This document shows positions 375 to 43,190 of a stretch of 64,000 nt of DNA, one piece after another. Source of the DNA: a virus (lineage: Duplodnaviria > Caudoviricetes); the IMG/VR virus record IMGVR_UViG_3300020465_001196; one strand, written 5' to 3'. The translations under genes and the position numbers were made by a program. Each line of letters opens with the position of its first letter. Position 1 is the stretch's first letter. Below the pieces are notes generated by a model. That model searched no databases. It saw only the letters and a program-made list of their open reading frames with translations, and was not told the origin of the DNA.

Positions 375-752
375 TTACTTTAACTCCACTTGTCCACCTG
401 CGTCTTCAATTTCTTTTTTAAATTTTTCAGCTTGGTCTTTAGCAACTTCAGTATCAACTGTTGCAGGCATATCACCTTCAACAAATTGTTTGGCTTCCAT
501 TAAACCAATACCTTTGATTGTTTTAATTGCTTTCAACACGTTAATTTTTTTACTACTGTCAAAGCCTGTTAGTATTACATTAAATTCTGTTTTACTTGCA
601 TCAACAGGTGCCGCCGCTGGCGCTCCTGCTGTTAAATTGGCTAAATCTAAATCCCATTCTTTTTCTAATTGCTTTGCAAGTTGACCTGCTTCTACTACTG
701 TTAGTTGTCCTAATTGTTCTATTAGTATATCTAATTTGTTTGTTTCTGTCAT
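375..752 (-). CDS. rplL: 50S ribosomal protein L7/L12 (bL12), phage-encoded, full length
   Basis: N-terminal LTVVEAGQLAKQLEKEW dimerisation helix, Ala/Pro hinge, TEFNVIL...KKINVLK...GIGLMEAKQFVE...AGGQVELK C-domain; RBS AAAGGA. Confidence 0.95.
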   Translation of the reverse strand: MTETNKLDILIEQLGQLTVVEAGQLAKQLEKEWDLDLANLTAGAPAAAPVDASKTEFNVILTGFDSSKKINVLKAIKTIKGIGLMEAKQFVEGDMPATVDTEVAKDQAEKFKKEIEDAGGQVELK

Positions 753-815
753 AAATCCTTTTATATTATAACTGTTGTTTTAATTACTTATATTAATATT
801 GTATTATAATTGGGG

Positions 816-1076
816 TTATATGTCAATCTGCTCATTGTAAACTTTAAAAGCATCTGGGTCCAACGTTGATATAGTGTACTCCCCAAGTATCTTACCATTT
901 TTATTATCTTGTTCAGTAATTGACATATGGCATTTCTTACACTTCCAACCTTCTACCCAAAACTTATCTTTATATATTGGTAGTTCAGTTTCTTTATTAA
1001 TGCAATGAGTATGTAGCCAAACAGGTATGCCTGTTAGTTTATACCACATCCTGCGTTTGTGCAATGTCCATTTCAT
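816..1076 (-). CDS. hypothetical protein with HxHC and CKKC motifs
   Basis: 86-aa ORF, ATG/stop overlap with neighbour. Confidence 0.7.
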   Translation of the reverse strand: MKWTLHKRRMWYKLTGIPVWLHTHCINKETELPIYKDKFWVEGWKCKKCHMSITEQDNKNGKILGEYTISTLDPDAFKVYNEQIDI

Positions 1077-4106: not shown

Positions 4107-4248
4107 ATCTGCTCCTTTGTTTTGCATTATATTAATAATAATAACATAATATAGGATTCTGTCAAGTGTTTATTTGCCATAAAAAAGTGGCGTAAACCTT
4201 GGTAGATCTACGCCACTATATGCGTCATATTACGAAAGGAACAGAATA

Positions 4249-5310
4249 TTATGACGCAATTCTGTTGGCCGCCATGCTTCTCTTCATACAAGTAGCACTA
4301 GCCAGCTTCTTCCAATCTGTGCTCATTCTCATTAGATCAGCTATTTTGGTGACCATTCTCAAACTTATTTCGTTTAAGCTATCTCTGTTATCCCATAGGA
4401 AATCAATAAGCTCTTGCTCTTGTTCCGGGGCGAACTTGTATGGAGTAAGCATTTCTCCATCTGCTATGATCTGTTTACATCTAAGCATTCTATCACGAAT
4501 ACTATCCATTGTTAAATCCAAATAGTGACATCTGGACATTACCGCTTGTAAGTGGTCCTGTAGCTTTTTAGATTTAACATAATCAAACTTGATGTTTGTT
4601 ATCATGATCACAGATCCTTGGAATTCAAATCTATCTGGCACACCCTCATTGGCTAATACTCTGGATTCTGTATTCCAACTTATGTATCTCTTCTTGCTTG
4701 AATCTAAAGCCGCTTTAAGTATGTTAAGAGCAACATCATCAAATAGGATACTGTCGCAGTCATCTAATACTAGGATATGTCCTCTATTAGAAAACTTAAA
4801 TAGTTTCTGATACAATCCTATGGCACTCATAGCACCTCTAACTATTTCCCATTTGGGTTGAGCTTCTGAGATCTTATCGAAGATGTTGGCCTCGTTTAGT
4901 TTCTCTTCTACTCCGTAACTTTTACCAACTCCTGGAGGGCCACTAACTATCATAGCTCTAACAGTCCCTTCCATAGTTGCTTCCGTCATAGTATCTAGGA
5001 TATCGAATCTTTCTCTGATTCTATCAATTGCTTGTTCTTCTGTTTCACCAGGTATGTTACTGTCGACGTGTTTGTTTTGCTTTTCAAAATCAGACTCGTT
5101 AACGAACTCGTAACTCTTAGGTGATTCACATCTTACCTTAATTGTACGAGCTGGAAAGTTAGGCACGTCAATGGCATCAACTGTAACAAAGCCACCTTGC
5201 TTATCAGTAGCAAATGCTTTTGTCATAGGAAATATTGTGCCAGCAACCGAAATAGGTTTGCCTGCTTTCTTACCGTAGGTTCCTTCTACGATCTTTACAA
5301 ATGTTTGCAT
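4249..5310 (-). CDS. AAA+/P-loop ATPase
   Basis: Walker A GPPGVGKS, Walker B LVLDDCD, sensor SVIMITN, MSRC arginine-finger-like motif. Confidence 0.85.
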   Translation of the reverse strand: MQTFVKIVEGTYGKKAGKPISVAGTIFPMTKAFATDKQGGFVTVDAIDVPNFPARTIKVRCESPKSYEFVNESDFEKQNKHVDSNIPGETEEQAIDRIRERFDILDTMTEATMEGTVRAMIVSGPPGVGKSYGVEEKLNEANIFDKISEAQPKWEIVRGAMSAIGLYQKLFKFSNRGHILVLDDCDSILFDDVALNILKAALDSSKKRYISWNTESRVLANEGVPDRFEFQGSVIMITNIKFDYVKSKKLQDHLQAVMSRCHYLDLTMDSIRDRMLRCKQIIADGEMLTPYKFAPEQEQELIDFLWDNRDSLNEISLRMVTKIADLMRMSTDWKKLASATCMKRSMAANRIAS

Positions 5311-5377
5311 AGTGTTCCTTTCTTTGCAATGTTAATTTATAATATTATAATAGCATGGATCTAAGATCTGTCAACCA

Positions 5378-5629
5378 TTAATTATTGTTCTCGATCTTTT
5401 CTCCTAATACATTACCAGCTTTACATCCAGCTAATGTTCCTAAAATAGTTGCCGCAGTTTTACCTGATCCGCTACCTACTTTAGATCCTAATACTCCACC
5501 TGCTACACACCCACCTGCAGTTGATACATCCTTTTTAGATATAGTTCCTGTAGTTGCATAACAACCTGATAACATAATCATAGCCGTTAATAATAATACA
5601 AGTGATATTAATGTTTTCTTATAGTACAT
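5378..5629 (-). CDS. glycine-zipper lipoprotein
   Basis: Lipobox LSGC; GGCVAGGVLGSKVGSG...ILGTLAGCKAGNVLG. Confidence 0.75.
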   Translation of the reverse strand: MYYKKTLISLVLLLTAMIMLSGCYATTGTISKKDVSTAGGCVAGGVLGSKVGSGSGKTAATILGTLAGCKAGNVLGEKIENNN

Positions 5630-5849
5630 ATTGACCCTCTCTCTTTAAGTTAATAAAAGGATAACCTAAGTTTTTAAAGTGTCCCAGCTTTCTGGCTCTT
5701 ACTAACATCCTAGCAAGAATCGATGTTTCATGGTTATCACTACTTTGCATCAATTGGTTAAATTTATAGAGTAAACCAGGCGCATCGCCGAAACCTCTCT
5801 GAGCACTTTTAAGTCTGCCGACTATTAGCTTCTTGCTTCTAATTCTCAT
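5619..5849 (-). CDS. hypothetical protein
   Basis: 76-aa ORF overlapping both neighbours. Confidence 0.65.
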   Translation of the reverse strand: MRIRSKKLIVGRLKSAQRGFGDAPGLLYKFNQLMQSSDNHETSILARMLVRARKLGHFKNLGYPFINLKREGQYVL

Positions 5850-6828
5850 ATGTGTCTACCTTTATAGATTGACTTTCTAACTCTGAACAACTATATCCTA
5901 GTTCTTCTAATTTTAATTTAGAACATTTCTTTTTTGCAAATCTTATTTCATCATAATAACTAACCTGCGTACCTCTAGTATCATGATAGTCTGTTCTGTA
6001 TATTCCAAATTGCATTGTAGACCAATTACTCCAAGTACCATTCTTTTTACCTGCTGGAGGAATAATTGAACCTTGGTAATGATAAACTAACTTACCATTA
6101 ATCCATAATTTTAAAAATCCACTATCCTTTGTTGTGTAGTTGACATTCATTACTACATCATTCCATTGGTTAAACAATTCTGATATGTCTAATGCTTTTT
6201 GGTTTGTATTCTCTTTCCAACTAACTGAACAACCTTCATTACCTTTGGCACCATACTTTTTATAAATCTTAGGTTCATTACAAGCAGTTCTTCTTTGTGT
6301 ATAAAGACCATCGCTTTCAATTGACCAGTTAAACATTGGTGCCCAATCACCATCGTTATGTATCTGCCAAATAGAATTGTGTCCTTCTTCATGTGGAATC
6401 TCTTCTACATAAAACGATAGTGTTTGCCAAACATTACCTTTGAAACCAATTTGTGAATTATCATTTGCAGGAGTTAATTCATTTCTTTCTGAATCTTGTC
6501 CGCAGTCCCATGATGTATTATTTGCTACATCATTTTTTGTAGCACCACAACTGCCTTTTCTAAGTTCAAACCTTAAAGCACTATCTCCATATCTAGTGTT
6601 GCTAGATACTTCTTGTATCATCCAAGGTTTCCAAAAAGACATATCATAATTGTATTTCCATTTATGAGGCCACTTCTGGAAAACGTCACCATCAGTTTTA
6701 ATTACTTGATTTTTAATTTTTAAAGTATTTGCTTCTGCTTTGTTGCAACCACCTAATCCCCATGCAAAGAAATACACGGCAAAGAATAGTATTGCTATTG
6801 TTTTAAAGTTTGGTTTATTGTTTTCCAT
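5839..6828 (-). CDS. exported polysaccharide-lyase-like beta-jelly-roll protein
   Basis: Signal peptide; ALRFELR...RNEL...WQIH...WNDVVMNV...KLWING...QFGIYR...YYDEIR motif order typical of Polysacc_lyase/ConA-like folds. Confidence 0.65.
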   Translation of the reverse strand: MENNKPNFKTIAILFFAVYFFAWGLGGCNKAEANTLKIKNQVIKTDGDVFQKWPHKWKYNYDMSFWKPWMIQEVSSNTRYGDSALRFELRKGSCGATKNDVANNTSWDCGQDSERNELTPANDNSQIGFKGNVWQTLSFYVEEIPHEEGHNSIWQIHNDGDWAPMFNWSIESDGLYTQRRTACNEPKIYKKYGAKGNEGCSVSWKENTNQKALDISELFNQWNDVVMNVNYTTKDSGFLKLWINGKLVYHYQGSIIPPAGKKNGTWSNWSTMQFGIYRTDYHDTRGTQVSYYDEIRFAKKKCSKLKLEELGYSCSELESQSIKVDTYEN

Positions 6829-6886
6829 CTGTTCTGTTCCTTTTGTTATACTATTATAATAGCATATTATAGGATTCTGTCAACCC

Positions 6887-6994
6887 CTAAAATCCCCAAC
6901 AAGTAATGCCCATAATACATAAGGTTTCTGTTGTCCACAGAATGTATATTGTACAGATTATACCCAAAATTACTTTTAAAATGTTCTCTCCCAT
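6887..6994 (-). CDS. 35-aa hydrophobic Cys-containing micropeptide
   Basis: Hand-translated MGENILKVILGIICTIYILWTTETLCIMGITCWGF directly after promoter 7001-7028. Confidence 0.5.
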   Translation of the reverse strand: MGENILKVILGIICTIYILWTTETLCIMGITCWGF

Positions 6995-7032
6995 ATAATA
7001 ACTATAGCACAATGTATAGATAAGTCAACCAC

Positions 7033-7061
7033 AAAAAAAGCCCCATATTTCAGGGGCTTTT
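7033..7061. terminator. rho-independent terminator (bidirectional shape)
   Basis: AAAAGCCCC-ATATTTCA-GGGGCTTTT. Confidence 0.8.
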
Positions 7062-7069
7062 AAATTTGT

Positions 7070-7300
7070 TTAAGCACCAGCTACAGCAGTAGCTTTTACT
7101 GAATCGATGTACTCTGATTTTGTCATCGGTTCTGATAATGCAATGAACTCTACTTTTGAGTGTTCATCTTTTGGTGTATAACCATTATTGATTAACACCT
7201 GAGCTCTGTTATCTGGTTTGTTAGTGAATCTTTTTACCAACTTACCATCGGCTCTTTTTGCTTCAAGTACGAATGTGTACTTTGTATTTGAGTCAGCCAT
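7070..7300 (-). CDS. hypothetical early protein
   Basis: Start refined to 7300 (RBS CAGGAGG); own promoter and terminator. Confidence 0.75.
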   Translation of the reverse strand: MADSNTKYTFVLEAKRADGKLVKRFTNKPDNRAQVLINNGYTPKDEHSKVEFIALSEPMTKSEYIDSVKATAVAGA

Positions 7301-7390
7301 TATAACCTCCTGTAGATTTAATTGACTATTTGTTTTAGTATAACACACTTTGGCCATTTGTCAACCAAAATGTTTTGGCCTAACATAGGC

Positions 7391-8041
7391 CTATTTCATA
7401 AATGTGTGGTTGCCCAACACACCTATATACTCTTTAGAACCAGCCCAGTAAGGTGATACTAAATTGTGATTATAATAGAAAACCGCACCGTGCGTGTTAT
7501 CATTTATAACTAGTTTTCCCCAACCTGTAATATAAATTGCAAGTTGAATAGAATCTTTCCAAGCTCTGGCATTGCCTTCGATGACTTGGCCAGTCTTTTC
7601 ATAGTTGGCCCATACAACATCTTTCTTACCATCGCAGTACCAACTGAATTGACATTTGTGTTTAATTGGCCAGAACACTCTATCTTCTTCAGCAACATCT
7701 TTACCTCTGGTCTTCCAAGACTCTCTTATAGGTCCTTGGTAGATAACTTCACAATAGGTAGACGGCCATCTAGAATCTGCAATTCGATTCTTAACAACAT
7801 TACCAACGGCCGCCTTACCTGATTCACCTTCAGCTCTGGCTTCAAAGTAGATGTTCTCTGCTAAACACATAATTTGTTTTATTTTTTCTTTATCATGAAT
7901 ATTGTTTTCTTCTAATTCAATCTTTAGAATTGTTTTGGCGTGCGTTGTAAGTGTTGCGGCTTGTGCCTTCTGATCAAAGAACCAAAGCACAACCATCAAC
8001 GCCATTAAGAAGTAAGCAACCTTTGTAATCAACTTATCCAT
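7391..8041 (-). CDS. cell wall hydrolase, SleB/Hydrolase_2 family
   Basis: CLAENIYFEARAE...AVGNVVKNR...WPSTYCEVIYQ...CQFSWYCDG...FYYNH...LGNHTF; N-terminal TM; start refined to 8041. Confidence 0.9.
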   Translation of the reverse strand: MDKLITKVAYFLMALMVVLWFFDQKAQAATLTTHAKTILKIELEENNIHDKEKIKQIMCLAENIYFEARAEGESGKAAVGNVVKNRIADSRWPSTYCEVIYQGPIRESWKTRGKDVAEEDRVFWPIKHKCQFSWYCDGKKDVVWANYEKTGQVIEGNARAWKDSIQLAIYITGWGKLVINDNTHGAVFYYNHNLVSPYWAGSKEYIGVLGNHTFMK

Positions 8042-8397
8042 TAAGCAACCTCTTCTTTCTTCCATTCATAATCATCTGTAGACCATTCATAGTCTCCATA
8101 ATCAATACTATCGCTATCTTCGTATGGAATACATTCAGCAACCTTTTTTGCTTCGAAGCTTTCTGAATGATCACCATTCCAATCACTAGCATAAACTTCT
8201 ACAGGTTCATCTTTATGATAACCTTCTTGCCATTCAATTTTATCAATACCACCTTCTTCGATAACAGCATCAACGGCTTCATCTCTACTATCAGCTACAA
8301 CATCATATTCAACCCATGCTGTGTAAGCCATTCTAACTCTGTATTTTGATTTACCGATATCCTTGTGTGGATTATCTTTGCTATATTCTTTTTTCAT
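8041..8397 (-). CDS. acidic hypothetical early protein
   Basis: RBS AAGGAAC; promoter 8424-8451. Confidence 0.75.
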   Translation of the reverse strand: MKKEYSKDNPHKDIGKSKYRVRMAYTAWVEYDVVADSRDEAVDAVIEEGGIDKIEWQEGYHKDEPVEVYASDWNGDHSESFEAKKVAECIPYEDSDSIDYGDYEWSTDDYEWKKEEVA

Positions 8398-8476
8398 ATT
8401 CTTGTTCCTTTTGTTATATTATTAATATAGCACATATTGGCCAATTGTCAAGACCCTAAATGACTCGCAGTTTTGC

Positions 8477-8677
8477 TTAATATTCGTCAAACAATACTCC
8501 TTCATCTTCATCTAGATCGCTGAAATACGTGGCATTATCTAATGCATCATCGGAACCTTGCTTATCCATACATTGGATACAATTCCATTTCTCATTATCT
8601 TCTGCATATTGTCTATCGTCAAAATGCTCTGTTGTCTCTTGACAAGTTTCACAGAACTTTGTTTTATATGGTACCAT
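8477..8677 (-). CDS. small Zn-ribbon-like protein (CETC...CIQC)
   Basis: Two CxxC motifs. Confidence 0.7.
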   Translation of the reverse strand: MVPYKTKFCETCQETTEHFDDRQYAEDNEKWNCIQCMDKQGSDDALDNATYFSDLDEDEGVLFDEY

Positions 8678-8903
8678 TTAATCTTTCCTCCTCTTCCATT
8701 CTATAATTGGCTTCACCGGCAGGTGTTCTCCAAATGTTAATAACCTTTACACGATGTTTCATATCTCTGTAGAACTCTTTCAACACCTTATGAAATGGTG
8801 TAGGTTCATCTACTTCAACTAAAGTGTATCCTCTAGTCATTCTCTCATCTTCAAGGTAATGATCTTTCTCCTTGTAGAATCTATATCTAATATGAACTGA
8901 CAT
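8664..8903 (-). CDS. hypothetical protein
   Basis: Coupled overlaps in early operon. Confidence 0.7.
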   Translation of the reverse strand: MSVHIRYRFYKEKDHYLEDERMTRGYTLVEVDEPTPFHKVLKEFYRDMKHRVKVINIWRTPAGEANYRMEEEERLNGTI

Positions 8904-9148
8904 TATCTAACTATACCTTTCTGCATTATTAAATGCTTGTCCCTTGCATCAGCAATAGGCTTGTCCTCATCTTCATCTTCTACTAAAGTCCAATAAGGTC
9001 CTCCATACATTAATTCTTTTACTTTTGCATCAACTAATCTTTCTGCTTCGACTTCATCGTCTGCACTAAAAGAATTAAATAGACTTTCTAAATGTTGTCC
9101 TTCTTCTCTAGGTGAATCAAAGTCTACTATTAATCTATATTTTGGCAT
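8903..9148 (-). CDS. hypothetical protein
   Basis: TAATG coupling; RBS GAGGAGG. Confidence 0.7.
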   Translation of the reverse strand: MPKYRLIVDFDSPREEGQHLESLFNSFSADDEVEAERLVDAKVKELMYGGPYWTLVEDEDEDKPIADARDKHLIMQKGIVR

Positions 9149-9330
9149 TACGCATCCTCCTCTTCTGTTTGATGATATCTGTCTGTAAAGTCCAAAGGTA
9201 AACCATTTGGATCGTGTTCGTCTTTTATTTCAGACTCTTTCCATGTGTTGCCATTTGCAATACTTGGTGTACCGCTTCTACCTGTTAAGGCATATATTTT
9301 ACCTGCTTCTGGTTTTCCTTTATCTGACAT
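9148..9330 (-). CDS. hypothetical protein
   Basis: TAATG coupling; RBS GGGGAGG. Confidence 0.65.
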   Translation of the reverse strand: MSDKGKPEAGKIYALTGRSGTPSIANGNTWKESEIKDEHDPNGLPLDFTDRYHQTEEEDA

Positions 9331-9857
9331 TACGCAACCTCCCCTAGTTTGTAACTTCTTTTTAATATATCGATATGATCTTTAACAGCATCTATTTCTA
9401 AAGACTTAAACGGTCCTTCAACATACTTGCCATTGTCTGTGTATATCGATTCTGAATAAAACCAAGTGCCAATTGGATTACCTAAATAATCTTTATGACC
9501 CGTATCTTTCATTAGATAAACAAATTGCTCACCCGACTTAAATCCGTTAGCAATAAAGTCTGCTTCATCTTTGTACACTTTGTACCCGCAGTTCTTCTCG
9601 CCTCTGTCTCTGCCATAATAAACATTTTGCACTTCGTATAATGGATCTTGTCTGTTGTCAAAATCAATTTTGTTTCCAACAATCATTCCCCATTTACTTG
9701 CGTCGCCAAGTTTAATTGCTTCTGTTACTTTCTTAGGGTCAGTCCAATAATCAATTAAGTTATAGCCCAAGCCGCCTGTATAGCCGTCCCAGTGTTGATA
9801 ACTTGCTATGATTCTTCCTGACTTTTGTTGTATTCCTATTCTAGCTCTAGTTGACAT
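9330..9857 (-). CDS. conserved phage hypothetical protein (TRARIG...YQHWDGY family)
   Basis: Recurrent phage N-terminal motif; TAATG coupling. Confidence 0.75.
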   Translation of the reverse strand: MSTRARIGIQQKSGRIIASYQHWDGYTGGLGYNLIDYWTDPKKVTEAIKLGDASKWGMIVGNKIDFDNRQDPLYEVQNVYYGRDRGEKNCGYKVYKDEADFIANGFKSGEQFVYLMKDTGHKDYLGNPIGTWFYSESIYTDNGKYVEGPFKSLEIDAVKDHIDILKRSYKLGEVA

Positions 9858-10057
9858 TACGCTTCCCTCCTATTTGCAAATAATATTGCAGTACCAGTTG
9901 TCATAAACGCAACACCTATACCAACCAGCATAAGCATTTCTGGTAAAGTGTTTGCAGTTTCCATACACTTGCCATCGCAGTCGTTAGCACTACCCGCCAT
10001 TACTATAAGTCCTATGGCAATTAGTATTGTTGCTAAAGTATTAAAAATGTTTTTCAT
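9857..10057 (-). CDS. 2-TM membrane protein with CDGKC loop
   Basis: Two hydrophobic segments; promoter 10083-10110. Confidence 0.75.
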   Translation of the reverse strand: MKNIFNTLATILIAIGLIVMAGSANDCDGKCMETANTLPEMLMLVGIGVAFMTTGTAILFANRREA

Positions 10058-10124
10058 TGTTTGTTCCTTTTGTTATATTATTAATATAGCATAGGTTTCT
10101 ATGTTGTCAACCATTAATTTTCCC

Positions 10125-10394
10125 TTATTTTGTGGGCGAATATGTGCCATCATCTTCGCAGTAAACCATAGGATCTACATATTCTTGCAGTTCTGCATGA
10201 TCAACAACATTAACTCTAGGCTCGTTTTTACCTACTTTAACTGTCAAGTCAAATTCAGCATTACAAGCCAAGTCAGTTGCTTCATCCTCATCCTTTGCAT
10301 CTACATCAACCCAAACAATGTAAGGTATGCCAATGCTGTATTTTTTATATGGTGATTTAAGATATGCTGTTTCTTCTTCTTGAGTCCAAACCAT
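10125..10394 (-). CDS. hypothetical protein
   Basis: RBS CAGGAGG; TAATG coupling. Confidence 0.7.
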   Translation of the reverse strand: MVWTQEEETAYLKSPYKKYSIGIPYIVWVDVDAKDEDEATDLACNAEFDLTVKVGKNEPRVNVVDHAELQEYVDPMVYCEDDGTYSPTK

Positions 10395-10561
10395 TATTCT
10401 TCCTCCTGTACATCAACTGTTATTGTATAACTAATTCCTGTTATACCAGGACTATCTTTGAAATATTTGTGTTCTCTAACAGCTTCCCATATTATTTCAG
10501 AAACTGTTTCTTTATCTCTTTTATTAAAGTTTTCGTTGATTCCTATTATTTGCTTTGGCAT
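10394..10561 (-). CDS. 55-aa hypothetical protein (not in ORF track)
   Basis: Hand-translated MPKQIIGINENF...VQEEE; RBS GAGGAGG. Confidence 0.65.
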   Translation of the reverse strand: MPKQIIGINENFNKRDKETVSEIIWEAVREHKYFKDSPGITGISYTITVDVQEEE

Positions 10562-10875
10562 ATTGGATCCTCCTCATATGGTTCCCATGGTAGCTCTCCA
10601 TCTTCGTACAGCTGAAACCATCTTCCTTCTGCACCATCAAGCCACTCATCTCTTAATTGTTGTTTAGTATATTTGTGAAAGCCTCTAAAGCCTCCCTCGA
10701 GTATATAAATTAATGTTTCGCTTTGCGGATCCATATCGTCAGTTATATCTTTGTACTCGACTTGTATCAATCGTTCAGCTAATACATAATGCGTTAAGAA
10801 GTGACCCTCCTTATCGACGATCACTTCTTCATCAGCACTACAATCTCTATAGTCTACAGGTAAGTTATTTGGCAT
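10546..10875 (-). CDS. hypothetical protein
   Basis: Start refined to 10875 (MPNNLPVDY). Confidence 0.65.
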   Translation of the reverse strand: MPNNLPVDYRDCSADEEVIVDKEGHFLTHYVLAERLIQVEYKDITDDMDPQSETLIYILEGGFRGFHKYTKQQLRDEWLDGAEGRWFQLYEDGELPWEPYEEDPICQSK

Positions 10876-11461
10876 TCGCTTCTTCCTTTTCCTCTGCTTC
10901 ATATTCAATAAGTCTTTCAACGCAACCCATATAGTCATCAATCAACTTACCATCTTCTGTATCCCAAAAGTCTGAATCTGATCTAGGTCCATCTTCGCTA
11001 CAATTATAGCAACGATCATCAAAGTCTTCATACACACCCATGAAGTCACAACCTGGTTCGTAATATACTAGACGAATTGAAACATCATCATTATTAGTAA
11101 GGTAATGTTCTATAGCCCCTAATGGTGGTGCCCAAGCACTATCAAAACCAAAGTCGACTTTCTTATCTCCATCGTCTTTACCAAATAGTTCTTCTTGTTC
11201 TTGTATTGAACCTTCGTAGATATCTACATCCCATTTGGTACCCCAATTGTCTACTCGCCAATCGTACCAGTTGTTATGTCCGTCCACGGTAGGTTGTTTC
11301 TTCATTACCTTTTCATCACTTGTGCTTTGCGTATCTTCAAGTTGTTTAGGCATTGGATAGAGTGCGTTTACGAACTCACCCTTTTTTGCACTATCAACAA
11401 GTTTGTCAACCTTTGCTTTAGGTCCAACTATTGAGATATTATTATTACACCAATTTGGCAT
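10865..11461 (-). CDS. DUF1281/Api92-like ferredoxin-fold protein
   Basis: MPNWCNN...WYDWRVDNWGTKWD...FDSAWAPP...YYEPG signature. Confidence 0.8.
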   Translation of the reverse strand: MPNWCNNNISIVGPKAKVDKLVDSAKKGEFVNALYPMPKQLEDTQSTSDEKVMKKQPTVDGHNNWYDWRVDNWGTKWDVDIYEGSIQEQEELFGKDDGDKKVDFGFDSAWAPPLGAIEHYLTNNDDVSIRLVYYEPGCDFMGVYEDFDDRCYNCSEDGPRSDSDFWDTEDGKLIDDYMGCVERLIEYEAEEKEEANAK

Positions 11462-11676
11462 TATTGCTCCTCTCCTGGTTTGTTGATTAATTGAACATAC
11501 TCACAAAAGTTATGTTCAAATACCGTAAGCAAATCATTATATGATCCTTGCATCATATCAACAACAATGCCTTCGGTCTTGTCCATAGGAAACGCAAGTT
11601 GCTTACCTAAAGATTTTGCAATCCCTATCAATGCGTATGCGTTGCCTTGTGGTCCTTGTAAGTCTATAGTTTGCAT
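11461..11676 (-). CDS. conserved phage hypothetical (IDLQGPQGNAYALIG family)
   Basis: RBS AAGGAG; promoter 11711-11738. Confidence 0.75.
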   Translation of the reverse strand: MQTIDLQGPQGNAYALIGIAKSLGKQLAFPMDKTEGIVVDMMQGSYNDLLTVFEHNFCEYVQLINKPGEEQ

Positions 11677-11878
11677 TTTTTCTGCTCCTTTTTAAGTTAA
11701 ACTATAATTAAATATAACATAGAAACCTATATTGTCAACCATTTATTTTAGTCTAAATACCCCAAAAAAATGTAATGATTTCAATGACTTACGTGAGGCA
11801 TTTTTATTAAAAAGAGGCTTGACATAACAGTATACTGTGTTATAGTTAATAATACAATTTACAACAAAAGGAGCAGTA

Positions 11879-12466
11879 ATGTATACAACACAACAAGTAC
11901 AAGCAGGTATTAAGTTTTTGCAGAATGCTAATGTTAACATGGAAGTAGAGTATGATGGTGATGAGAAGCAAATACACATACACATACATACTCCTGAGGG
12001 CACTCGTTTTTGGACTAGTGGAGATAGCATATGGAGTGACAGGGGTGTTAAAAAAGGTGTACTAGTAGAAGGTATTGGTATGTGTGCTACGTACACAGAC
12101 TACGAAGAAGACAACTATTGGAGTGGAGGACTTGCGGGCAACATTAACTATGATGGTAGTGGAAAAAACGGCACATGGTATGATGGAATTGACGATCCCT
12201 CTGCGTTAATTAATAGGAACCCTAGTAAAGCAAGTGATGGATTAATTTATACAGACTATGGCTTTATTGAGAATGCATTTAAATATATGGAAGAGCATTG
12301 CGACTTTAACAGCAAACTGTTAAGGGAAAAGTTTTTAGACTTTGACTATAGCGAACAGGGAATGCAAGATGAGGGTAACGTTAACTTAGACGTTGACTTA
12401 GATGGAGACTTTTGGATACATTGTAATGACGAGTTAGTAAAGTTTACAGCAACTAAAGTTGCATAA
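11879..12466 (+). CDS. acidic hypothetical early protein
   Basis: Own promoter 11819-11846, RBS AAGGAG, terminator downstream. Confidence 0.8.
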   Translation: MYTTQQVQAGIKFLQNANVNMEVEYDGDEKQIHIHIHTPEGTRFWTSGDSIWSDRGVKKGVLVEGIGMCATYTDYEEDNYWSGGLAGNINYDGSGKNGTWYDGIDDPSALINRNPSKASDGLIYTDYGFIENAFKYMEEHCDFNSKLLREKFLDFDYSEQGMQDEGNVNLDVDLDGDFWIHCNDELVKFTATKVA

Positions 12467-12477
12467 CACGTAAAAAG

Positions 12478-12514
12478 AAAAAGCCCCTTTGCTAAATGCA
12501 TTAGGGCTTTTTTT
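12478..12514. terminator. rho-independent terminator between convergent units
   Basis: AAAAGCCC...GGGCTTTTTTT. Confidence 0.75.
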
Positions 12515-12635
12515 ATGATTTAAATTTAATTTAAGATTAAAGGGCCGAATAGGATCAGCAGTAACATTCCTGGCACAACTATAGTCATGGGCCAGAAATG
12601 CAGTAACTCTAATAATGCACGTTTAGTACTTCTCT

Positions 12636-12977
12636 TCACGCAACCTCCAAGAAAGCTTCGTTGATTGGCTCCCAATCAATACCGTTATCGCTATAGTGCC
12701 ATACACCTTTCATGTGTACAAACAAACCTTCTAGGTTCTCTTTGTTCTTTACACCGCTGATTTGCGTACATAAAGGATCACCATAACCATCTATACCAGC
12801 ATGATCATCAACTAGATCCCATTGAGCTAAATGTACAAAGTACTTGGCATCCTTATGTGTAGGTGCAACCTTTTGCAATTGTTCAGCAAGTTGTACAGCT
12901 GAATCCTTTTGATACAATGTAGAAGTAACCGATTCACGCACATTGTAGTAACCAACTCTAAAGTTTTTTATTTCCAT
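12636..12977 (-). CDS. hypothetical early protein
   Basis: RBS GAGGA; promoter 13005-13032. Confidence 0.75.
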   Translation of the reverse strand: MEIKNFRVGYYNVRESVTSTLYQKDSAVQLAEQLQKVAPTHKDAKYFVHLAQWDLVDDHAGIDGYGDPLCTQISGVKNKENLEGLFVHMKGVWHYSDNGIDWEPINEAFLEVA

Positions 12978-13117
12978 ATGTTATATTCCTCTCTGTTATT
13001 ATTAATAATAGCACGAGTTACAGATCTGTCAAGTGTAAAAATTCCTTCCATTTTACACTACAAATTGTATTGACGTAACGTGTAACTATGCTATAATTTA
13101 AATAAAGAAAGGAACAA

Positions 13118-13330
13118 ATGGGAATAATATCTAAAGAGGCCGTAGATCTCTTAAACAAACTATGCAAATATAAATCATATACAGTACATCACAAATATGC
13201 TAGACCTAGTCGTATACAGTTTAGATTAAAAAGAGATGCTAAAAAGTACTGTATACAACATAACCTAGATCACAGTAGCAGTTGGGTCTTAACAACTTGT
13301 CATCATTATATTAAACCTAAAATAAAATAA
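13118..13330 (+). CDS. basic hypothetical early protein
   Basis: Promoter 13070-13097, RBS AAAGGA. Confidence 0.7.
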   Translation: MGIISKEAVDLLNKLCKYKSYTVHHKYARPSRIQFRLKRDAKKYCIQHNLDHSSSWVLTTCHHYIKPKIK

Positions 13331-13631
13331 ATTAGGCTCTTGACAATATAGAAACCTATGCTATTATAATATTATATCCGGTCGTAATTAACTAGAGCAG
13401 AGAAAATTTAGAAAGAAAAGATCGTTACTCAAAGGTTGGGCCGAACTCTGACCTTTTTACCATGGCACATGATATAGTCATGACTTGACTACATATTGTT
13501 TGTCGCTGTTGTTCGCCGCGGTAAGTCATTGAAATTATTAGTCTTTTTTCACACAAGATGTTGTGTCGCGTTTATCACGATGATCACTATATCTAGTGGC
13601 CAATTGTTACTGTACAGCAATGCGTACAGAC

Positions 13632-13728
13632 TGTTGTATTTTTGCAACACTCTGTGACTAATGTGTTGTAATTATGCAACACCCGAAATCTGTTGTATTT
13701 TTGCAACAGGTGTTGCAATTGTGCAACT
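13632..13728. repeat. four 18-bp palindromes TGTTG(T/C)A-N4-TGCAAC(A/T)
   Basis: At 13632, 13664, 13691, 13711. Confidence 0.9.
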
Positions 13729-13774
13729 CATCAAAAACCCCAGAATTTCTCAACCTCCCGGCCCCTTCTCTCCT

Positions 13775-13876
13775 CTTTGAACCTATCCCCTCTTTGAGGC
13801 CCTTTGAACCTCTTTGAAGCCTTTGAGTGCTTTGAACCGCTTTGAGTGTCTTTGAGTGCTTTGAACGTCTTTGAAG
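13775..13876 (+). repeat. ten CTTTGA(A/G)N units, mostly 9-10 bp apart
   Basis: CTTTGA starts at 13775, 13792, 13802, 13812, 13821, 13830, 13840, 13850, 13859, 13869. Confidence 0.9.
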
Positions 13877-14246
13877 GTGTAGCTGTTATCACCTAACCAT
13901 CCCCGTCATAACAGCTACTAGTATCTCTGGGCTCCATCATCTTTGTTGTAACACTGACCGCTGAGCATACTGAGTATACCAACTTGATCAAAACAGTTCA
14001 GCACGGTTAGGATGTGTAACTCCTTCGATCCATAATGTTATTTAATATAGCAGTATACGATCATCATGTCAACCATTTAATTAGTCTCGGAGAGACCACT
14101 AGATATAGTCATAATTAAATGAGGCCATTTTCAGAGGCTATAGGGGCCACCACAACATATAGTCATGGTGAAACCTACGCAGGTCTGGCGTAAATGACTA
14201 CATATAGTCTCGGGGTTGACAATATCCTGACTAATCCTGGGATCCC

Positions 14247-15872: not shown

Positions 15873-15948
15873 ATACAGCAGTTAGTGGTCTAGTGGGCTT
15901 ACTCGATCACTAACAATTAAACCCTATTTTAAATAAATACTAATCGCT

Positions 15949-16359
15949 ATGAAACGATTAGATGTATCAGATAACACTTCTATTAGTATGCCAATCCGTA
16001 ATATGATTGCCATCATTGGTGCCGTATGTTTGGGTGTTTGGGCTTACTTTGGTGTTACTGAAAAGATCAATCAACATAGCACTACTCTACAATTAATTGA
16101 TAAAGAAATAAAAGCAAACACAGAATTTAGAATCAAATATCCACGTGGCGAATTAGGTCAATCACAAAACGATCTAGAACAATTTATGCTTATTGAAGAA
16201 CTATACAAGTCAGTGGAAAAAATGGAAAAAGTATTAGAATCAAATATGACTAACAAAGTTAACATTGACTTCTTATCTAAACAAGTTGAAAAGATGTTAA
16301 ATGATATTGAAAAGTTAAAAGACAAGCAAAGAGATTTTGCTAATGGAGATCACCAATGA
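15949..16359 (+). CDS. membrane-anchored coiled-coil protein, common in marine phages
   Basis: ISMPIRNMIAII TM, then coiled coil. Confidence 0.75.
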   Translation: MKRLDVSDNTSISMPIRNMIAIIGAVCLGVWAYFGVTEKINQHSTTLQLIDKEIKANTEFRIKYPRGELGQSQNDLEQFMLIEELYKSVEKMEKVLESNMTNKVNIDFLSKQVEKMLNDIEKLKDKQRDFANGDHQ

Positions 16360-16568
16360 TTGAAACAGTTGTAGCCTTACTAATGTTTATTAATAATGAA
16401 ATTAAAGAACATAGAATACAAGATAGTATGGGTGTATGTTTAAGAGGTAAACGTACAGCAGAAAGACAGTATTCAGAAGGCGTAAAATACCAATGCATCA
16501 AATCTAAAGCTGAACTAGAATTAAACATTGATGGTTCTAAAACAATTAAAGCATTAATATTAGAATAA
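16356..16568 (+). CDS. small conserved marine-phage protein ([10 protein letters not shown]...C...C)
   Basis: ATGA coupling to previous gene. Confidence 0.75.
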
Positions 16569-16629
16569 TTATCTATTTGTTTTACGCATAGCAGATATGC
16601 AGATAAATACTAGCTTACCAAAGGATATT

Positions 16630-16860
16630 ATGAAAAAAGATATACACCCTGACTATCATGAAATCACAGTTAAAAGAACTGATGGCTCTACGTTTAAAAC
16701 TAAATCAACTTGGGGCAAAAAGGGTGATACCATGAATCTAGAAACTGATCCAACAGACCATCCAGCATGGAATCCTGGTAAGAAAGCAAGGATGAAAGAA
16801 AAGGGTCGTGTTGCAAGTTTTCAATCTAGATATGGTAATATATTTTCTAAAAAGGATTAG
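16630..16860 (+). CDS. rpmE: 50S ribosomal protein L31 (bL31), zinc-free alphaproteobacterial type
   Basis: [10 protein letters not shown]...[13 protein letters not shown]...DPTDHPAW...[10 protein letters not shown]; no CxxC; RBS AAGGA; start refined to 16630. Confidence 0.93.
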
Positions 16861-16862
16861 TT

Positions 16863-17057
16863 ATGAGAGATACAAAAGGCTTAGAAGCATATACTAAAAA
16901 TCTTAATAAGAAAAACAAAGAAAAGTTACTTAATAAAGTATTACGTAGAGAAGTAGAAACTGGTGCTAATGGAACACAACAATACGTAATTAAAAAAGGC
17001 ACAAACAAAGGCAAAGTAGCCAAAGGCTTTAGTGGTAACAATGGATCAACAAACTAA
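16863..17057 (+). CDS. basic hypothetical protein (RREVETGANGTQQYVIK family)
   Basis: Follows rpmE by 2 nt. Confidence 0.7.
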   Translation: MRDTKGLEAYTKNLNKKNKEKLLNKVLRREVETGANGTQQYVIKKGTNKGKVAKGFSGNNGSTN

Positions 17058-17274
17058 ACTAGCTTCTATAATTTGGATTATTGTAGTGGTGTCTGCATTC
17101 TTTATTCTTACTGGATGTAGTGGAATGTCAGTATCAGGTAATTGCTGTGGTTCAAGCAATATTAAAATTGAAAAAACATGGGTGTTACCTACACCTACTA
17201 CGTATGAAGAAGAACGTACAGTCCACGACAAATACCCAGTTTTAGAAGTAATAGTGGAAAATCTAGCTAAATAG
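17041..17274 (+). CDS. putative lipoprotein
   Basis: TM/signal ending LTGC; GNCCG. Confidence 0.65.
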   Translation: MDQQTKLASIIWIIVVVSAFFILTGCSGMSVSGNCCGSSNIKIEKTWVLPTPTTYEEERTVHDKYPVLEVIVENLAK

Positions 17275-17278
17275 CATT

Positions 17279-17467
17279 ATGAAAAACTTTTTTAAAAATA
17301 TTACAGACTCGGCTAAAAAAGCAGGTTCTAAGATAACTGATGGTGCTAAAAACATTACATCTAAAACAGTAGATGGTGTTAAAGGCGTTGGCGATAAAGC
17401 CAAAAGATCAATGGATCTTGCCAAAGGTAAAGTTACTAAACTGACTCAGTTTAAACCTAAAAAATAA
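17279..17467 (+). CDS. Lys-rich amphipathic (LEA/YtxH-like) peptide
   Basis: 11-residue periodicity ITDSAKKAGSK/ITDGAKNITSK/TVDGVKGVGDK. Confidence 0.65.
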   Translation: MKNFFKNITDSAKKAGSKITDGAKNITSKTVDGVKGVGDKAKRSMDLAKGKVTKLTQFKPKK

Positions 17468-17707
17468 TTATTTTTTAGCAAAACTTTCTTTTGTTATCCC
17501 AGCTTTAGCGAATGCTTCAGCAAATGCATTATTCAAAGGTGCATTATTAGATTCATTTGATTTAAAACTTTTTTGATTGTGAGAAGGCTTTTTTCTTTTT
17601 TGAGGTTTAGATTTCTTCTTAGGTAAAGGCTCAATTGAGTGAGTGATTTTCTTTACTGACTTTTTTTGAGGTTCACCTATGGTGTATGTTTGTTTCTTTT
17701 TAGCCAT
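17468..17707 (-). CDS. very basic small protein
   Basis: Lys-rich; C-terminal NNAFAEAFAKA helix; TAAATA at 17731 upstream. Confidence 0.7.
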   Translation of the reverse strand: MAKKKQTYTIGEPQKKSVKKITHSIEPLPKKKSKPQKRKKPSHNQKSFKSNESNNAPLNNAFAEAFAKAGITKESFAKK

Positions 17708-17773
17708 ATATGTTTTAGGTTCCTTAACTGTATTTAACCATTATCATTGAAATGAAGCATATAATATGCAAAA

Positions 17774-18239
17774 ACCTTGGGCTTATGTCCTAAGACTGCC
17801 AAGGTACTATATGCAAGAAGGCCGTTTTAAGTACTTTAGTACACCTTCGGTGTAGACCAAATGTCTACGAAATGGAAGTATCTAAGACTTCCTATGGAAG
17901 CTACTGTGGCTTCCTAAAATGAGAAGCTTCAATGCTTCTCTAAATGAGAACAACTAAGGTTCTCTAAAACGGTGCAATTTTTAAAGACATTTTTAAACTT
18001 TATAAGTCGTCTAGCACCTCTATAAACATTATAGGTTATTATTGTTTAGTGTAAGAATTTATAAGCATTTTTAAAGTATTATACTAGCTAACTTACTAAT
18101 AATAAACCTAACTAAATGAGCATCTGTGGCTCTCTTTTCCTAGTAGGTGTAAGTAATTATCTCTTACATACCTCCATTAAAATATTTGATAATGGATATC
18201 GTTACACTTTATCAAATATTTTTTAGAGGTTAAGTTAGC
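17774..18239. ncRNA. candidate structured non-coding RNA / hairpin array
   Basis: Four adjacent covarying hairpins 17874-17964, fifth at 18118-18132, 14-bp perfect stem 18179-18222; no ORF. Confidence 0.45.
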
Positions 18240-20343: not shown

Positions 20344-21072
20344 ATGAAGTGGACAACTTTAATACAAACAAAATACTATAATATAGATAAAACTGAATCA
20401 ATTGATCTTATTATACCTAGAACTGTTAAAGATGATCAACAAATTGCTGGTAGGCAGGTTGATACATTAGGTATATGGTGTTCAGGTGGTGCTGACTCAA
20501 GTGCTTTATTATATTTGCTTTGTAAAGAAATAAAAAAGAATAATTTAAGTATAAAAGTACAACCAATGACAGTTAGAAGACAACGTCCATGGAACCCTGT
20601 AAAAGCAACTCATGTTATTAATAAAATTACTGAAATTTGTGAAGCACAAGAAATTGTGTTACCTCATTTAATTTACTATCCTGACTTAAAAGATGAGCAT
20701 CAAACTGAATGGCAAGAATTTCAAGATAGAAATAAAGAAAATGAAGAAACAGGAGTGTGGGATGTTCTATATGATGGTATAACATCTAACCCACCAGAAG
20801 GGGCAATGCCTTATGACACAGATCAAAAAGATAGACGTGATCCAAATGTAGACCATGAATTGATTACTCCAGATGGATGTTCTCATAGACCATTTTTTAA
20901 TACAAATAAAAAATTTATTGCTGACATTTATAAGCAAGAAAATTTAATGAGTAATTTATTTCCTTTAACTTGGTCATGTGAAGGAACGTTTGAACAAACA
21001 AATGGTTACCTAACACCTTGTGAAAACTGTTGGTGGTGTCATGAAAGATATTGGGCATTCAATAGATATTAA
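20344..21072 (+). CDS. QueC-like PP-loop ATP pyrophosphatase
   Basis: CSGGADS; PF...K..I; TWSC...CENCWWCHER. Confidence 0.8.
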   Translation: MKWTTLIQTKYYNIDKTESIDLIIPRTVKDDQQIAGRQVDTLGIWCSGGADSSALLYLLCKEIKKNNLSIKVQPMTVRRQRPWNPVKATHVINKITEICEAQEIVLPHLIYYPDLKDEHQTEWQEFQDRNKENEETGVWDVLYDGITSNPPEGAMPYDTDQKDRRDPNVDHELITPDGCSHRPFFNTNKKFIADIYKQENLMSNLFPLTWSCEGTFEQTNGYLTPCENCWWCHERYWAFNRY

Positions 21073-22397
21073 TGTCAGAAATTATTGCAATCGATAACGA
21101 TATACAAAATCCTTATTCATTTGAAGTAACATGGGATTTAGGTTTACGATGTAATTTTGATTGTACTTACTGTCCTTCACACAGACATAACAACACATCA
21201 CCTCATGCAAGTTTAGAAACATTAATTAAAACAAGTAAGTTTGTTTTTGATTATAAAAAATTATTACAATCGTATATGACATATTCTCGTAAATGGAATA
21301 TTGGATTTACAGGAGGTGAACCAACTGCCAATCCAAACTTTTTAGCAATGTGTGAATACATACATGATCAAGGTGACCAAGATGTAGTTGTTGATGTAAC
21401 AACAAATGGAGCCATAGGAGAAAAATATTGTAAAAAATTAATTGATAATGTTGATAGTATTACTGTAAGTTATCACAGCGAAGTAGATCAAAAAACAAAA
21501 GATAGAGTTGTAGATAGAATTTATCAATTAAAAGAATCAAATATTAGACATAAAGTTAATTTAATGTTTCATGCTAAAGAAGAATACTTTAATGAATGTA
21601 TTGATTTAGTTGGAAAATTTACTAGAGATAATGTAAAGTTTGTACCAAGAATTATTGGAGAAAGTTATGATAATGACAAGTACAATCATAGATATACTCC
21701 AGAACAACATAAATGGTTTAGAGACTTTTGGGCAATTAGAAACAAAAAAGAAAACAATCAAAAGCAACCTAAAAAGATAGATGAAAATAATGATGCCGAA
21801 TATGAGTATACAGATGATCAAAAGAAAGTACAAGAAAAAAGATTAGCACAAAAGGCAAAAGATATTGCAGTAGGTGAAAGAATTAAAACCAAAGACCTAT
21901 CAAAACCTATAAAAGATTTACTACCAAAAAAACAAGAAGGTAGAAAAAGTTTAGGTAGACCTTGTTGTGGGCAAAGAACATTTTATACATTAACAGAAGA
22001 ACATTATACACAAAATAATAAAAAATTAGATACAGATAAATGGAATAAAAGTGTATTTGCTTGTTCAACAGAATATAAAGATTGGTCTTGTTTAATTAAT
22101 TGGAATTGGTTACATATTGAACAAGAATATGATAATATACTACATCATCAAACTTGTCGTGCAAATTTTGGTGGGGAACGTGGGCCTATTGGTAAGATAT
22201 CTGAAAGTGAAATAGTTTTAGAAAGATTAGAAAAACAATTAGCAACAGGTAAAATGCCTGTAATAACTTGCCCTAATAAAGTTTGCGGTTGTGGTTTATG
22301 TGTACAAAAATCAAAACATCATGATATGACAGAAGCAATGTTTAATAAAGCAGTAAAAGGTTTAACTCCTGTTATTGGAGCAAAACTAAATGGATAA
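21072..22397 (+). CDS. radical SAM enzyme with Cys-rich C-terminus
   Basis: CNFDCTYC, FTGGEP, C-terminal CPNKVCGCGLC. Confidence 0.9.
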   Translation: MSEIIAIDNDIQNPYSFEVTWDLGLRCNFDCTYCPSHRHNNTSPHASLETLIKTSKFVFDYKKLLQSYMTYSRKWNIGFTGGEPTANPNFLAMCEYIHDQGDQDVVVDVTTNGAIGEKYCKKLIDNVDSITVSYHSEVDQKTKDRVVDRIYQLKESNIRHKVNLMFHAKEEYFNECIDLVGKFTRDNVKFVPRIIGESYDNDKYNHRYTPEQHKWFRDFWAIRNKKENNQKQPKKIDENNDAEYEYTDDQKKVQEKRLAQKAKDIAVGERIKTKDLSKPIKDLLPKKQEGRKSLGRPCCGQRTFYTLTEEHYTQNNKKLDTDKWNKSVFACSTEYKDWSCLINWNWLHIEQEYDNILHHQTCRANFGGERGPIGKISESEIVLERLEKQLATGKMPVITCPNKVCGCGLCVQKSKHHDMTEAMFNKAVKGLTPVIGAKLNG

Positions 22398-23676
22398 AGA
22401 AGTAAAAAACTTTAATGAAAAGTATGGTAACACCTTCTGTATAAAACCTTTTTCAGAAGTAGCATCTACACCACTTGGTGCAATTAAGTTGTGCTGTTAC
22501 TCTGGAACAATTGATCCTAAAGAAGAATATTTCAGCAAAGATAAAACTATCAAACAAGTGTTTAACAACAACGCAGGATTGATACAAGCAAGAAAAGATT
22601 TACTTGCTGGTAAAAAAATAAAACAATGTCAAGGTTGTTGGAAAGACGAAGAAGCTGGAAACAAATCAATGAGGATAAATCACACACAATATTACGATGA
22701 GATGGATCCAGAGTTTGTGCAACAAGCAAAACAACAAGGCAAAGCAGAAGTTAAAAGTATAGACATAAAATTTGGTAACAAATGCAATTATGCCTGCGTT
22801 ATGTGTGCACCAGACAACAGCAGTTTGTGGGGAAAAGAAATACAAAAAAATCCAATAGACGTAGATTTATATCAAGGTGGCTTTAATAATTTTGTTCAAT
22901 TAGTTGATTACCCAGAACACAAATATGATGAGCTTTTAGAAATATCTAAAAGTATTAGAAGAGTGAAAAGCACTGGTGGTGAACCAATGTTGCTAGATGG
23001 ATTCAAAGGTTACATAAAAAAAATAGTAGACAAAGGATATGCCAAATACATGAACTTTAAAACTGTAACAAATGGTACAGTTGATTGTTCTGAATTACTA
23101 CCTTACATGAATGAGTTCAAAAGGTTTGAAATGGATTGGAGTGTTGATGGCACCGGCGAAGTTTATAATTATATTAGGTGGCCTGGCAACTTTAATAGGA
23201 TGAAAAGAATACACGAAAAATTAGCATCAGAAATTATCAACAACAATTATAAAAATATTGAAATTACTATGCACCCAACTATACAAGTTTTTAATCTACA
23301 TAATATTCCTGAAATAATACAATATGCAAAAGATCTACAGGTTGTTAATTTTGTAGATTTTGGATACATTTTTGATGAGCCAAGTTATTTAAACACTGGT
23401 GTATTTCCTGATAAAATGCTAGAAGATATTATTCAAGAAAACAATAAAAAAGTTGGTAAAATAGAAACATCAAACAATTTTAATCATTCATATGATAATC
23501 TTGTGTCGACTGTACGTAGAGATCAAAAATTATTTAATAAAAAGTACAACAAAAAAGAATTGTTTGATAAAACTAAAAGAATAGCAAAATGGTTTGATAA
23601 AAGTAGGAAACTAGATATTCACAATCACATATCAACATATAAAGAGCTTGAAAATTACTATCTACACCTACAATAA
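22390..23676 (+). CDS. N-terminal twitch-domain radical SAM enzyme
   Basis: FCIKPF...CC...CQGCW then CNYACVMC, TGGEP. Confidence 0.9.
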   Translation: MDKEVKNFNEKYGNTFCIKPFSEVASTPLGAIKLCCYSGTIDPKEEYFSKDKTIKQVFNNNAGLIQARKDLLAGKKIKQCQGCWKDEEAGNKSMRINHTQYYDEMDPEFVQQAKQQGKAEVKSIDIKFGNKCNYACVMCAPDNSSLWGKEIQKNPIDVDLYQGGFNNFVQLVDYPEHKYDELLEISKSIRRVKSTGGEPMLLDGFKGYIKKIVDKGYAKYMNFKTVTNGTVDCSELLPYMNEFKRFEMDWSVDGTGEVYNYIRWPGNFNRMKRIHEKLASEIINNNYKNIEITMHPTIQVFNLHNIPEIIQYAKDLQVVNFVDFGYIFDEPSYLNTGVFPDKMLEDIIQENNKKVGKIETSNNFNHSYDNLVSTVRRDQKLFNKKYNKKELFDKTKRIAKWFDKSRKLDIHNHISTYKELENYYLHLQ

Positions 23677-23973: not shown

Positions 23974-24047
23974 TGGTAGCACTACCGGGAATTGAACCTG
24001 GGTCTTAACCTCCTGAAAGTTACGTTCTACCATTGAACTATAGTGCA
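23974..24047 (-). tRNA. atypical tRNA, anticodon CAG (Leu codon) on a short-variable-arm body, CCA encoded
   Basis: TGCACTA TA GTTC-AATGGTA-GAAC G TAACT-TTCAGGA-GGTTA AGAC CCAGG-TTCAATT-CCCGG TAGTGCT A CCA. Confidence 0.8.
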
Positions 24048-35386: not shown

Positions 35387-35463
35387 TGGCCTGCCCGGGA
35401 AGATTCGAACTTCCGACCTTCAGTTCCGCAAACTGACGCTCTATCCAACTGAGCTACGGGCAG
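35387..35463 (-). tRNA. tRNA-Arg(GCG), CCA encoded
   Basis: CTGCCCG acceptor, A20, TCAGT-TTGCGGA-ACTGA, G73. Confidence 0.92.
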
Positions 35464-35467
35464 TTGT

Positions 35468-35541
35468 TGGCTGGGGTAGATGGATTCGAACCACCGATGT
35501 CGGTACCAAAAACCGATGCCTTACCACTTGGCGATACCCCA
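35468..35541 (-). tRNA. tRNA-Gln(TTG), CCA encoded
   Basis: TGGGGTA acceptor U1-A72, TCGGT-TTTTGGT-ACCGA. Confidence 0.93.
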
Positions 35542-35542
35542 A

Positions 35543-35619
35543 TGGTAGCAGAGGCTGGGATCGAACCAGCGACCTCCGGCTTATGAGTCCGGCGCTCTAA
35601 CCAACTGAGCTACTCTGCC
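35543..35619 (-). tRNA. tRNA with CAT anticodon, elongator Met more likely than Ile2
   Basis: GGCAGAG acceptor, CCGGA-CTCATAA-GCCGG; lacks initiator C1:A72 and lacks C4:G69/C5:G68 TilS-type pairs. Confidence 0.88.
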
Positions 35620-43189: not shown

Positions 43190-43190
43190 A

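Follow-up and report, generated by a model that had tools for sequence, protein, structure and literature searches.

The gene under study occupies positions 16630-16860 of a 64,000-nt stretch of viral DNA, hereafter the window, and encodes ribosomal protein bL31. A gene for a second ribosomal protein, bL12, is located 16 kb away on the opposite strand. The features on which the analysis was built are listed below by window position.

375-752, minus strand: rplL, full-length bL12 of 125 aa (PF00542 and PF16320; TIGR00855 at 100.6 bits, above cut-off)
798-826, minus strand: predicted sigma70-type (early-type) promoter of bL12, TTGACA-17-TACAAT, with the same -35, spacer length and -10 in the relative G001 (L093)
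15930-16568, plus strand: upstream pair of genes of unassigned function, 136 and 70 aa (PHROG families without a known function); TAAATA in tandem at 15930-15939
16603-16609, plus strand: ATAAATA, predicted late-type promoter motif (gp55-like sigma; Rak2/CBB-type consensus), called from enrichment, conservation and the CBB consensus
16620-16625, plus strand: AAAGGA, Shine-Dalgarno-like motif 4 nt before the bL31 ATG, called from the sequence
16630-16860, plus strand: rpmE, alphaproteobacterial-type, Cys-free bL31 of 76 aa (Pfam and NCBIfam above cut-offs; AlphaFold; dN/dS)
16863-17467, plus strand: three small co-oriented genes (64, 77-80 and 62 aa) behind bL31, spaced by 2, -17 and 4 nt; the third has a TAAATA of its own, and their order is the same in L001 and L150

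Over its full length, the product of the rpmE gene scored above the cut-offs of three profiles, namely PF01197 (77.9 bits against 27, E 7e-22), the NCBIfam model PRK00528 (96.9 against 70 bits) and TIGR00105 (86 against 38.35 bits). It contains no Cys, its nearest cellular relatives are alphaproteobacterial, and its sequence matches in the PDB were all bL31. Two other bL31 types were considered and rejected: the zinc-binding type A (PRK00019), defined by two zinc-binding Cys pairs, reached 48.4 bits against a cut-off of 70, and the zinc-independent type B paralogue YkgM/RpmE2 (PRK01678, about 80 aa or longer) reached 38.8 bits against 86. Type B proteins occur as a paralogue beside a zinc-binding host copy, whereas the candidate hosts have one bL31, which is Cys-free. 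The AlphaFold model (mean pLDDT 72.5) shows strands at residues 10-15, 21-26 and 34-36, followed by a linker and a C-terminal helix at residues 59-71. The best Foldseek matches of this model were bL31-length small chains of 70S structures (E 2e-5), with a TM score of only ~0.45 because the linker is flexible. An in-frame ATG at 16597, which would give an 87-aa protein, lies 5' of the ATAAATA motif and is gone in a 95%-identical relative (L138); the start was therefore placed at 16630. Thus, 16630-16860 is a genuine and intact phage bL31 gene, as the preliminary description of this DNA had proposed.

We have then looked for the phage from which the window derives. The longest contig encoding an identical bL31 protein measures 323,919 bp, and the same holds for the identical bL12 protein. 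A related sequence, G001 (IMGVR_UViG_3300020477_000990), is a complete 328,149-bp terminal-repeat (DTR) genome that is syntenic with the window around bL31; its bL31 and bL12 are 81% and 80% identical to those of the window, respectively. Genes for gp23, a large terminase and a gp55-like late sigma factor are present in G001. The capsid protein of this genome shares 65-69% identity with those of PA5oct, GAP32, CBB and Sinorhizobium phage Phosso, and the G001 group was therefore assigned to the marine Rak2-like jumbo myophages. Judged by its proteins, the source of the window is such a phage, T4-related and ~324 kb long. The neighbors of bL31 and the fiber genes of the window have PHROG matches, and identical bL31 is present in the same neighborhood on at least 24 contigs. 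A chimeric contig, the concern raised at the outset, was ruled out by these repeated assemblies and by the syntenic complete relative, which has both bL31 and bL12 and so confirms that the two genes belong to one phage genome. A DNA contig from another sample spans 16062-17689, and none was found that spans bL12 to bL31. A second phage lineage carries bL31 that is 73-81% identical, amid different genes. One member of this lineage is on L103 (GCA_902591815.1, CACJCA010000001.1, 162 kb), whose accession resembles a marine single-cell series and which could yield a host link. Among cultured phages we found no true bL31; the nine matches were 30-40% identical and bacterial-contig-like. An unpublished genome (G119) contributes to none of the conclusions.

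In the phylogenetic tree, the phage bL31 proteins formed one clade (support 100/99) inside the Alphaproteobacteria, and rpmE was evidently acquired once, from an alphaproteobacterium, by an ancestor of these phages. A first tree joined the phages to the small-genome clade AG-895-E07 (SH-aLRT 91); in a better-sampled tree, sister positions of AG-895-E07 (p-AU 0.52) and SAR11 (p-AU 0.18) were neither rejected nor shown. The host is probably a small-genome marine alphaproteobacterium. The nearest named cellular relatives of the G001 bL33 are from Pelagibacteraceae (61-69% identical), which gives a hint only as to donor or host, and the bL12 search returned no useful named neighbor. The label SAR11 was given on the basis of one genome, in which bL33 shares 78% identity with a named protein of Pelagibacteraceae. 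Two sequences titled Bacillus subtilis and Marinomonas (L064 and L040) encode a bL31 of alphaproteobacterial type, placed in the tree with Brucellaceae and Sphingomonadales, and are likely mislabelled or contaminated.

The dN/dS of bL31 was 0.03-0.26 in 19 of 21 pairs, with the other two saturated. Neighboring small genes gave 0.10-0.27, and bL31 was no lower. The codon comparison shows an intact gene under purifying selection, which indicates that it is functional, though not specifically in the ribosome. Like their cellular counterparts from SAR11, HIMB59 and AG-895-E07 (PRK00528; 72-77 aa), to which they are 48-66% identical, the phage proteins are Cys-free and contain HPDYH and HPAW. They differ from them in a linker that is more basic and lacks the usual Asp, in a C-terminal YGxxF and in being placed behind a phage promoter and not at the host locus. 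No CxxC was present in the 80 top cellular matches, and Cys was absent from 40 additional alphaproteobacterial copies and from 20 of SAR11. Since cellular alphaproteobacterial bL31 lacks the zinc motif, the Cys-free state was inherited; it is the normal state of this group, SAR11 included, and the weight previously given to "zinc-free" falls away.

The ATAAATA upstream of bL31 includes TAAATA at 16604-16609 and is separated from the ATG by 20 nt. The preliminary description had the motif right and gave 21 nt, a spacing that counts from its last A. The AAAGGA that follows is also found before bL31 at most second-lineage loci. In shuffles of the 61-nt AT-rich gap, TAAATA arose by chance in 5.6% and ATAAATA in 2.2% of cases, and the single TAAATA, taken alone, is modest sequence evidence for a promoter. 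We have therefore based the case on genome-wide enrichment and on conservation, not on the single site. The window holds 91 TAAATA, compared with 151 predicted by shuffles, and in coding DNA this is the rarest of the 15 A4T2 hexamers (0.4/kb). On the sense strand it precedes 17 of the 99 window genes, against 2 on the antisense strand; shuffles gave 9.6 +/- 2.7, with 1 in 300 as high. In the window alone, ATAATA ties with TAAATA for enrichment before genes; upon adding two more loci, TAAATA was found before 34 of 168 genes, whereas 13.8 were expected from shuffles. Because ATAAATA reads identically backwards, the strand control was uninformative in G001. The TAAATA class was also found upstream of the fiber genes of the window and of structural genes of GAP32 and Phosso.

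bL31 has the motif upstream of it in each of four gene arrangements. It is found at -26 in the window and in L138; in the second lineage the distance is -16 to -22, whichever gene precedes. A third arrangement has it at about -190, across a 52-aa gene. In the fourth, that of G001, the motif is present only at the head of the upstream two-gene unit, ~640 nt from bL31. Because the bL31-proximal motif is absent there, the promoter of the upstream pair would drive bL31 too in G001.

The bL31 motif matches the CBB consensus and is one base off the T4 late promoter TATAAATA. For CBB and GAP32, Buttimer et al. 2017 (PMC5259590) predicted ATAAATA to be the late promoter, and the relative G001 encodes a gp55-like sigma (phrog_12791, E 3e-82). 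Searches for gp33 and gp45, run without a positive control, gave no match in G001; both were also undetected in CBB (PMC5259590). The G001 group has the heptamer and the gp55-like sigma in common with CBB and GAP32. It differs in that ATAAATA also stands before translation and metabolic genes, and the CBB late promoter is itself a prediction. Taken together, we consider it likely that the ATAAATA upstream of bL31 is a real phage-sigma promoter, in line with the late-type motif first described there. By analogy with T4 and from the CBB prediction, it probably fires late; because TAAATA is also found before many metabolic genes, "late" could stand for everything that is not early. For Rak2-like phages, our literature search turned up neither transcript starts nor timing data on this class of promoter. 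The bL31 bin was thinly covered by RNA contigs from one metatranscriptome and not by those of two other studies; such contigs may include DNA and cannot rank genes.

The bL12 gene is placed differently. No TAAATA occurs within 150 nt upstream of it, in the window or in G001, and in both genomes it lies behind TTGACA-17-TACAAT. Twelve near-perfect TTGACA-16/17-TAnnnT promoters stand before small genes at 4138-14072 of the window, so that the 3-14 kb block of small genes reads as an early-type block of the promoter class of bL12. With bL12 behind an early-type and bL31 behind a late-type promoter, they are not a late pair, and the two-protein late programme originally proposed is not supported. 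Nor are they a special pair: the complete genome of G001, where the count was made (the window being 64 kb of its source genome), encodes five scattered ribosomal proteins, bL31 (~123 kb), bL12 (~141 kb), uL11 (~269 kb), bS21 (~275 kb) and bL33 (~327 kb), as well as IF3 and a 700-codon EF-G-sized translational GTPase. The G001 bL33 passed the Pfam cut-off (29.6 against 25 bits) and fell just under that of TIGR01023 (22.2 against 23.95). Profile searches of G001 for HPF, bS1, uL10, bL28, bS20 and bL36 found none of these six families.

In G001, bS21 is preceded by the early-type TTGACA-16-TATTAT, whereas IF3 and the bL33 unit have TAAATA upstream. The gene for the EF-G-sized protein has ATAAATA 51 nt before its GTPase domain, a distance measured to the domain and not to the start codon. 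By their predicted promoters, the translation genes split into two classes, bL12 and bS21 being early and bL31, IF3 and the bL33 operon late. A ribosomal protein of a large phage was also tied to late replication for the bS21 of Chen et al. 2022 (PMC9723584), which is expressed together with structural genes. That link came from metatranscriptomes of Bacteroidetes phages, whereas here it comes from a motif, and the bS21 of the G001 family has an early-type promoter.

Several observations accompany these genes. The G001 IF3 (L091, 790-1713; ~274.8-275.7 kb) is ATG-initiated and full-length, has an N-terminal extension of ~38 aa, and lies beside bS21 and downstream of a ClpX-like gene. The G001 bL33 (L112, 352-567; ~327.2 kb) has 71 aa and no Cys, and belongs to a family with dozens of clusters and hundreds of members. 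Another group of viral contigs (L094, L095) has a 120-aa bL12 that is 53% identical, beside a ribonucleotide-reductase-like gene.

Phage bL31 is not new in itself. Mizuno 2019 counted 15 contigs with viral bL31 and 1310 with bS21, which bears out the rarity noted previously, and proposed that loosely bound, exchangeable ribosomal proteins are replaced (PMC6375957). Of the viral proteins, they tested only bS21, bL12 and HPF (PMC6375957), and incorporation into ribosomes is shown in the literature only for bS21 and bL12. Our gene resembles theirs in being intact, aquatic and under purifying selection (their mean pN/pS was 0.14) and in the hypothesis attached to it. It differs in that its complete genome context, Rak2-like family and promoter class can be given, and that one genome holds four more ribosomal proteins. 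Phage bL31 alone is a known rarity, and the value lies in the setting of five proteins and two promoter classes. In the openly accessible literature, we found no paper on ribosomal proteins of the G001 phage group. The earlier record was three ribosomal proteins per virus according to Meza-Padilla et al. (2026, PMC13157829), whose own claim of six, for PhiMa05, is disputed on the ground that the sequence is non-viral (PMC13623518). PhiMa05 likewise has several ribosomal proteins in one large sequence; unlike G001, it has neither a terminase nor a complete virion module and could be bacterial. The five genes of G001 are dispersed through a complete terminal-repeat genome that also encodes gp23, terminase and gp55, and the G001 bL31 falls in a phage-only clade. 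Its five ribosomal proteins in a complete phage genome exceed the undisputed record of three.

How might the phage benefit from bL31? The reading that we favor, by a small margin over even odds, is late resupply of a loosely bound bridge protein, as one piece of a genome-wide translation kit with two promoter classes. The phage ancestor would have taken rpmE once from an alphaproteobacterium and kept it intact, and the gene, wired to the ATAAATA class and probably read by the gp55-like sigma, would be expressed late. The N-terminal 50S-binding domain is kept in phage bL31; from what is known of the family, the protein would bind the central protuberance of the host 50S, at 5S rRNA and uL5, and reach across to the 30S head as bridge B1b, either standing in for host bL31 or pushing it out. 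Supplied late, it could keep the subunits joined during bulk synthesis of virion proteins, as host synthesis fades. Resupply is favored because bL31 is labile: it is loosely bound (PMC6375957, PMC9966373), and in E. coli loss of the intact protein costs ~40% of translation activity (PMC9966373). Against plain resupply, the 30S-facing half has phage-specific changes that it does not require.

These changes would be explained if phage bL31 retooled the ribosome, altering subunit joining, head movement or mRNA choice (e.g., of leaderless or short-leader mRNAs) together with bS21, IF3, bL33, uL11, bL12 and EF-G. The net charge of the linker between HPAW and GRV was +2 to +4 in 17/17 phage proteins, compared with -1 to +1 in 79 cellular ones, -2 to +1 in 40 more and 0 to +2 in SAR11; the C-terminal YGxxF was present in all 17 phage and in 2 of 80 cellular proteins. 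By homology to E. coli, the linker and C-terminal half contact uS13, uS19 and uS14 (PMC9966373), so that the changed half would face these proteins, and the large genome-wide kit is also consistent with retooling. The charge signal is modest, however, because the overall charge overlaps that of SAR11 and only the linker difference remains. That phage bL31 is unusually basic overall held against the first 80 cellular proteins (mean +1.4) and was lost once SAR11 was included (+3 to +8, phage +5 to +9); the Lys before GRV is common to phage and SAR11 proteins. Furthermore, the changes may reflect drift or matching to the host. bL31 is not known to contact mRNA directly, which also counts against retooling, and we regard retooling as unlikely. 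A bolder version is likewise doubtful. Its gene count is observed in G001; it would have a marine jumbo phage family with the largest undisputed viral set of ribosomal proteins deploy it in two timed waves, bL12 and bS21 early and bL31 late, the remodelled 30S-facing half altering bridge B1b, to give phage-specialised ribosomes.

Counter-defense or anti-dormancy, in which the phage copy replaces host bL31 that has been cleaved, modified or used for hibernation or splitting, appears improbable. Formation of 100S particles in E. coli requires bL31, whose C-terminus is open to proteases on free 50S (PMC9966373), and the phage-specific changes map to the C-terminal half; yet in E. coli this cleavage arises as an artefact of lysis, and neither a host nor a defense system was identified. 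The lack of an HPF-family gene in G001 neither supports nor tests this idea. Marginally less probable still is an extra-ribosomal role, as an RNA-binding repressor of the kind acting on rpmE leaders or as a binder of phage RNA. In E. coli, bL31 acts as a translational repressor (PMC9825181), and 0.9 kb downstream of the gene there is a structured non-coding region covered by RNA; both ribosome-binding halves are nevertheless full-length across a diverse clade, bL31 has a different neighborhood in the second lineage, and no link to the downstream RNA was found. Finally, zinc sparing, in which the Cys-free phage protein displaces a zinc-binding host bL31 as YkgM/YtiA do in E. coli and B. subtilis (PMC9966373), is effectively refuted by the failed type B model and by plausible hosts that are all already Cys-free, unless the host is a non-alphaproteobacterium with a CxxC-type bL31.

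Late resupply and specialisation could be separated with bL31, which lends itself to testing: rpmE mutants grow slowly but survive. The split into promoter classes, in turn, predicts which parts of the ribosome the phage changes, and when.

Other elements of the window were recorded. An intergenic hairpin array at 17760-18160 (plus strand) has a folding z of -5.4, is covered by RNA contigs from three studies and gave no Rfam match; in G001 it is ~80% identical, with a compensatory change and one entire hairpin missing. Four tRNA genes, for Leu(CAG), Arg(GCG), Gln(TTG) and Met(CAT), lie at 23974-24047 and 35387-35619. By eye, the regions 20344-23676 and 29947-63991 contain many radical-SAM-like genes, two QueC-like genes, carbamoyltransferase-like and nucleotide-sugar dehydrogenase-like genes, SufC/SufD-like genes and a ferredoxin-NADP reductase-like gene. 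The Grx4 gene at 42884-43216 was confirmed.
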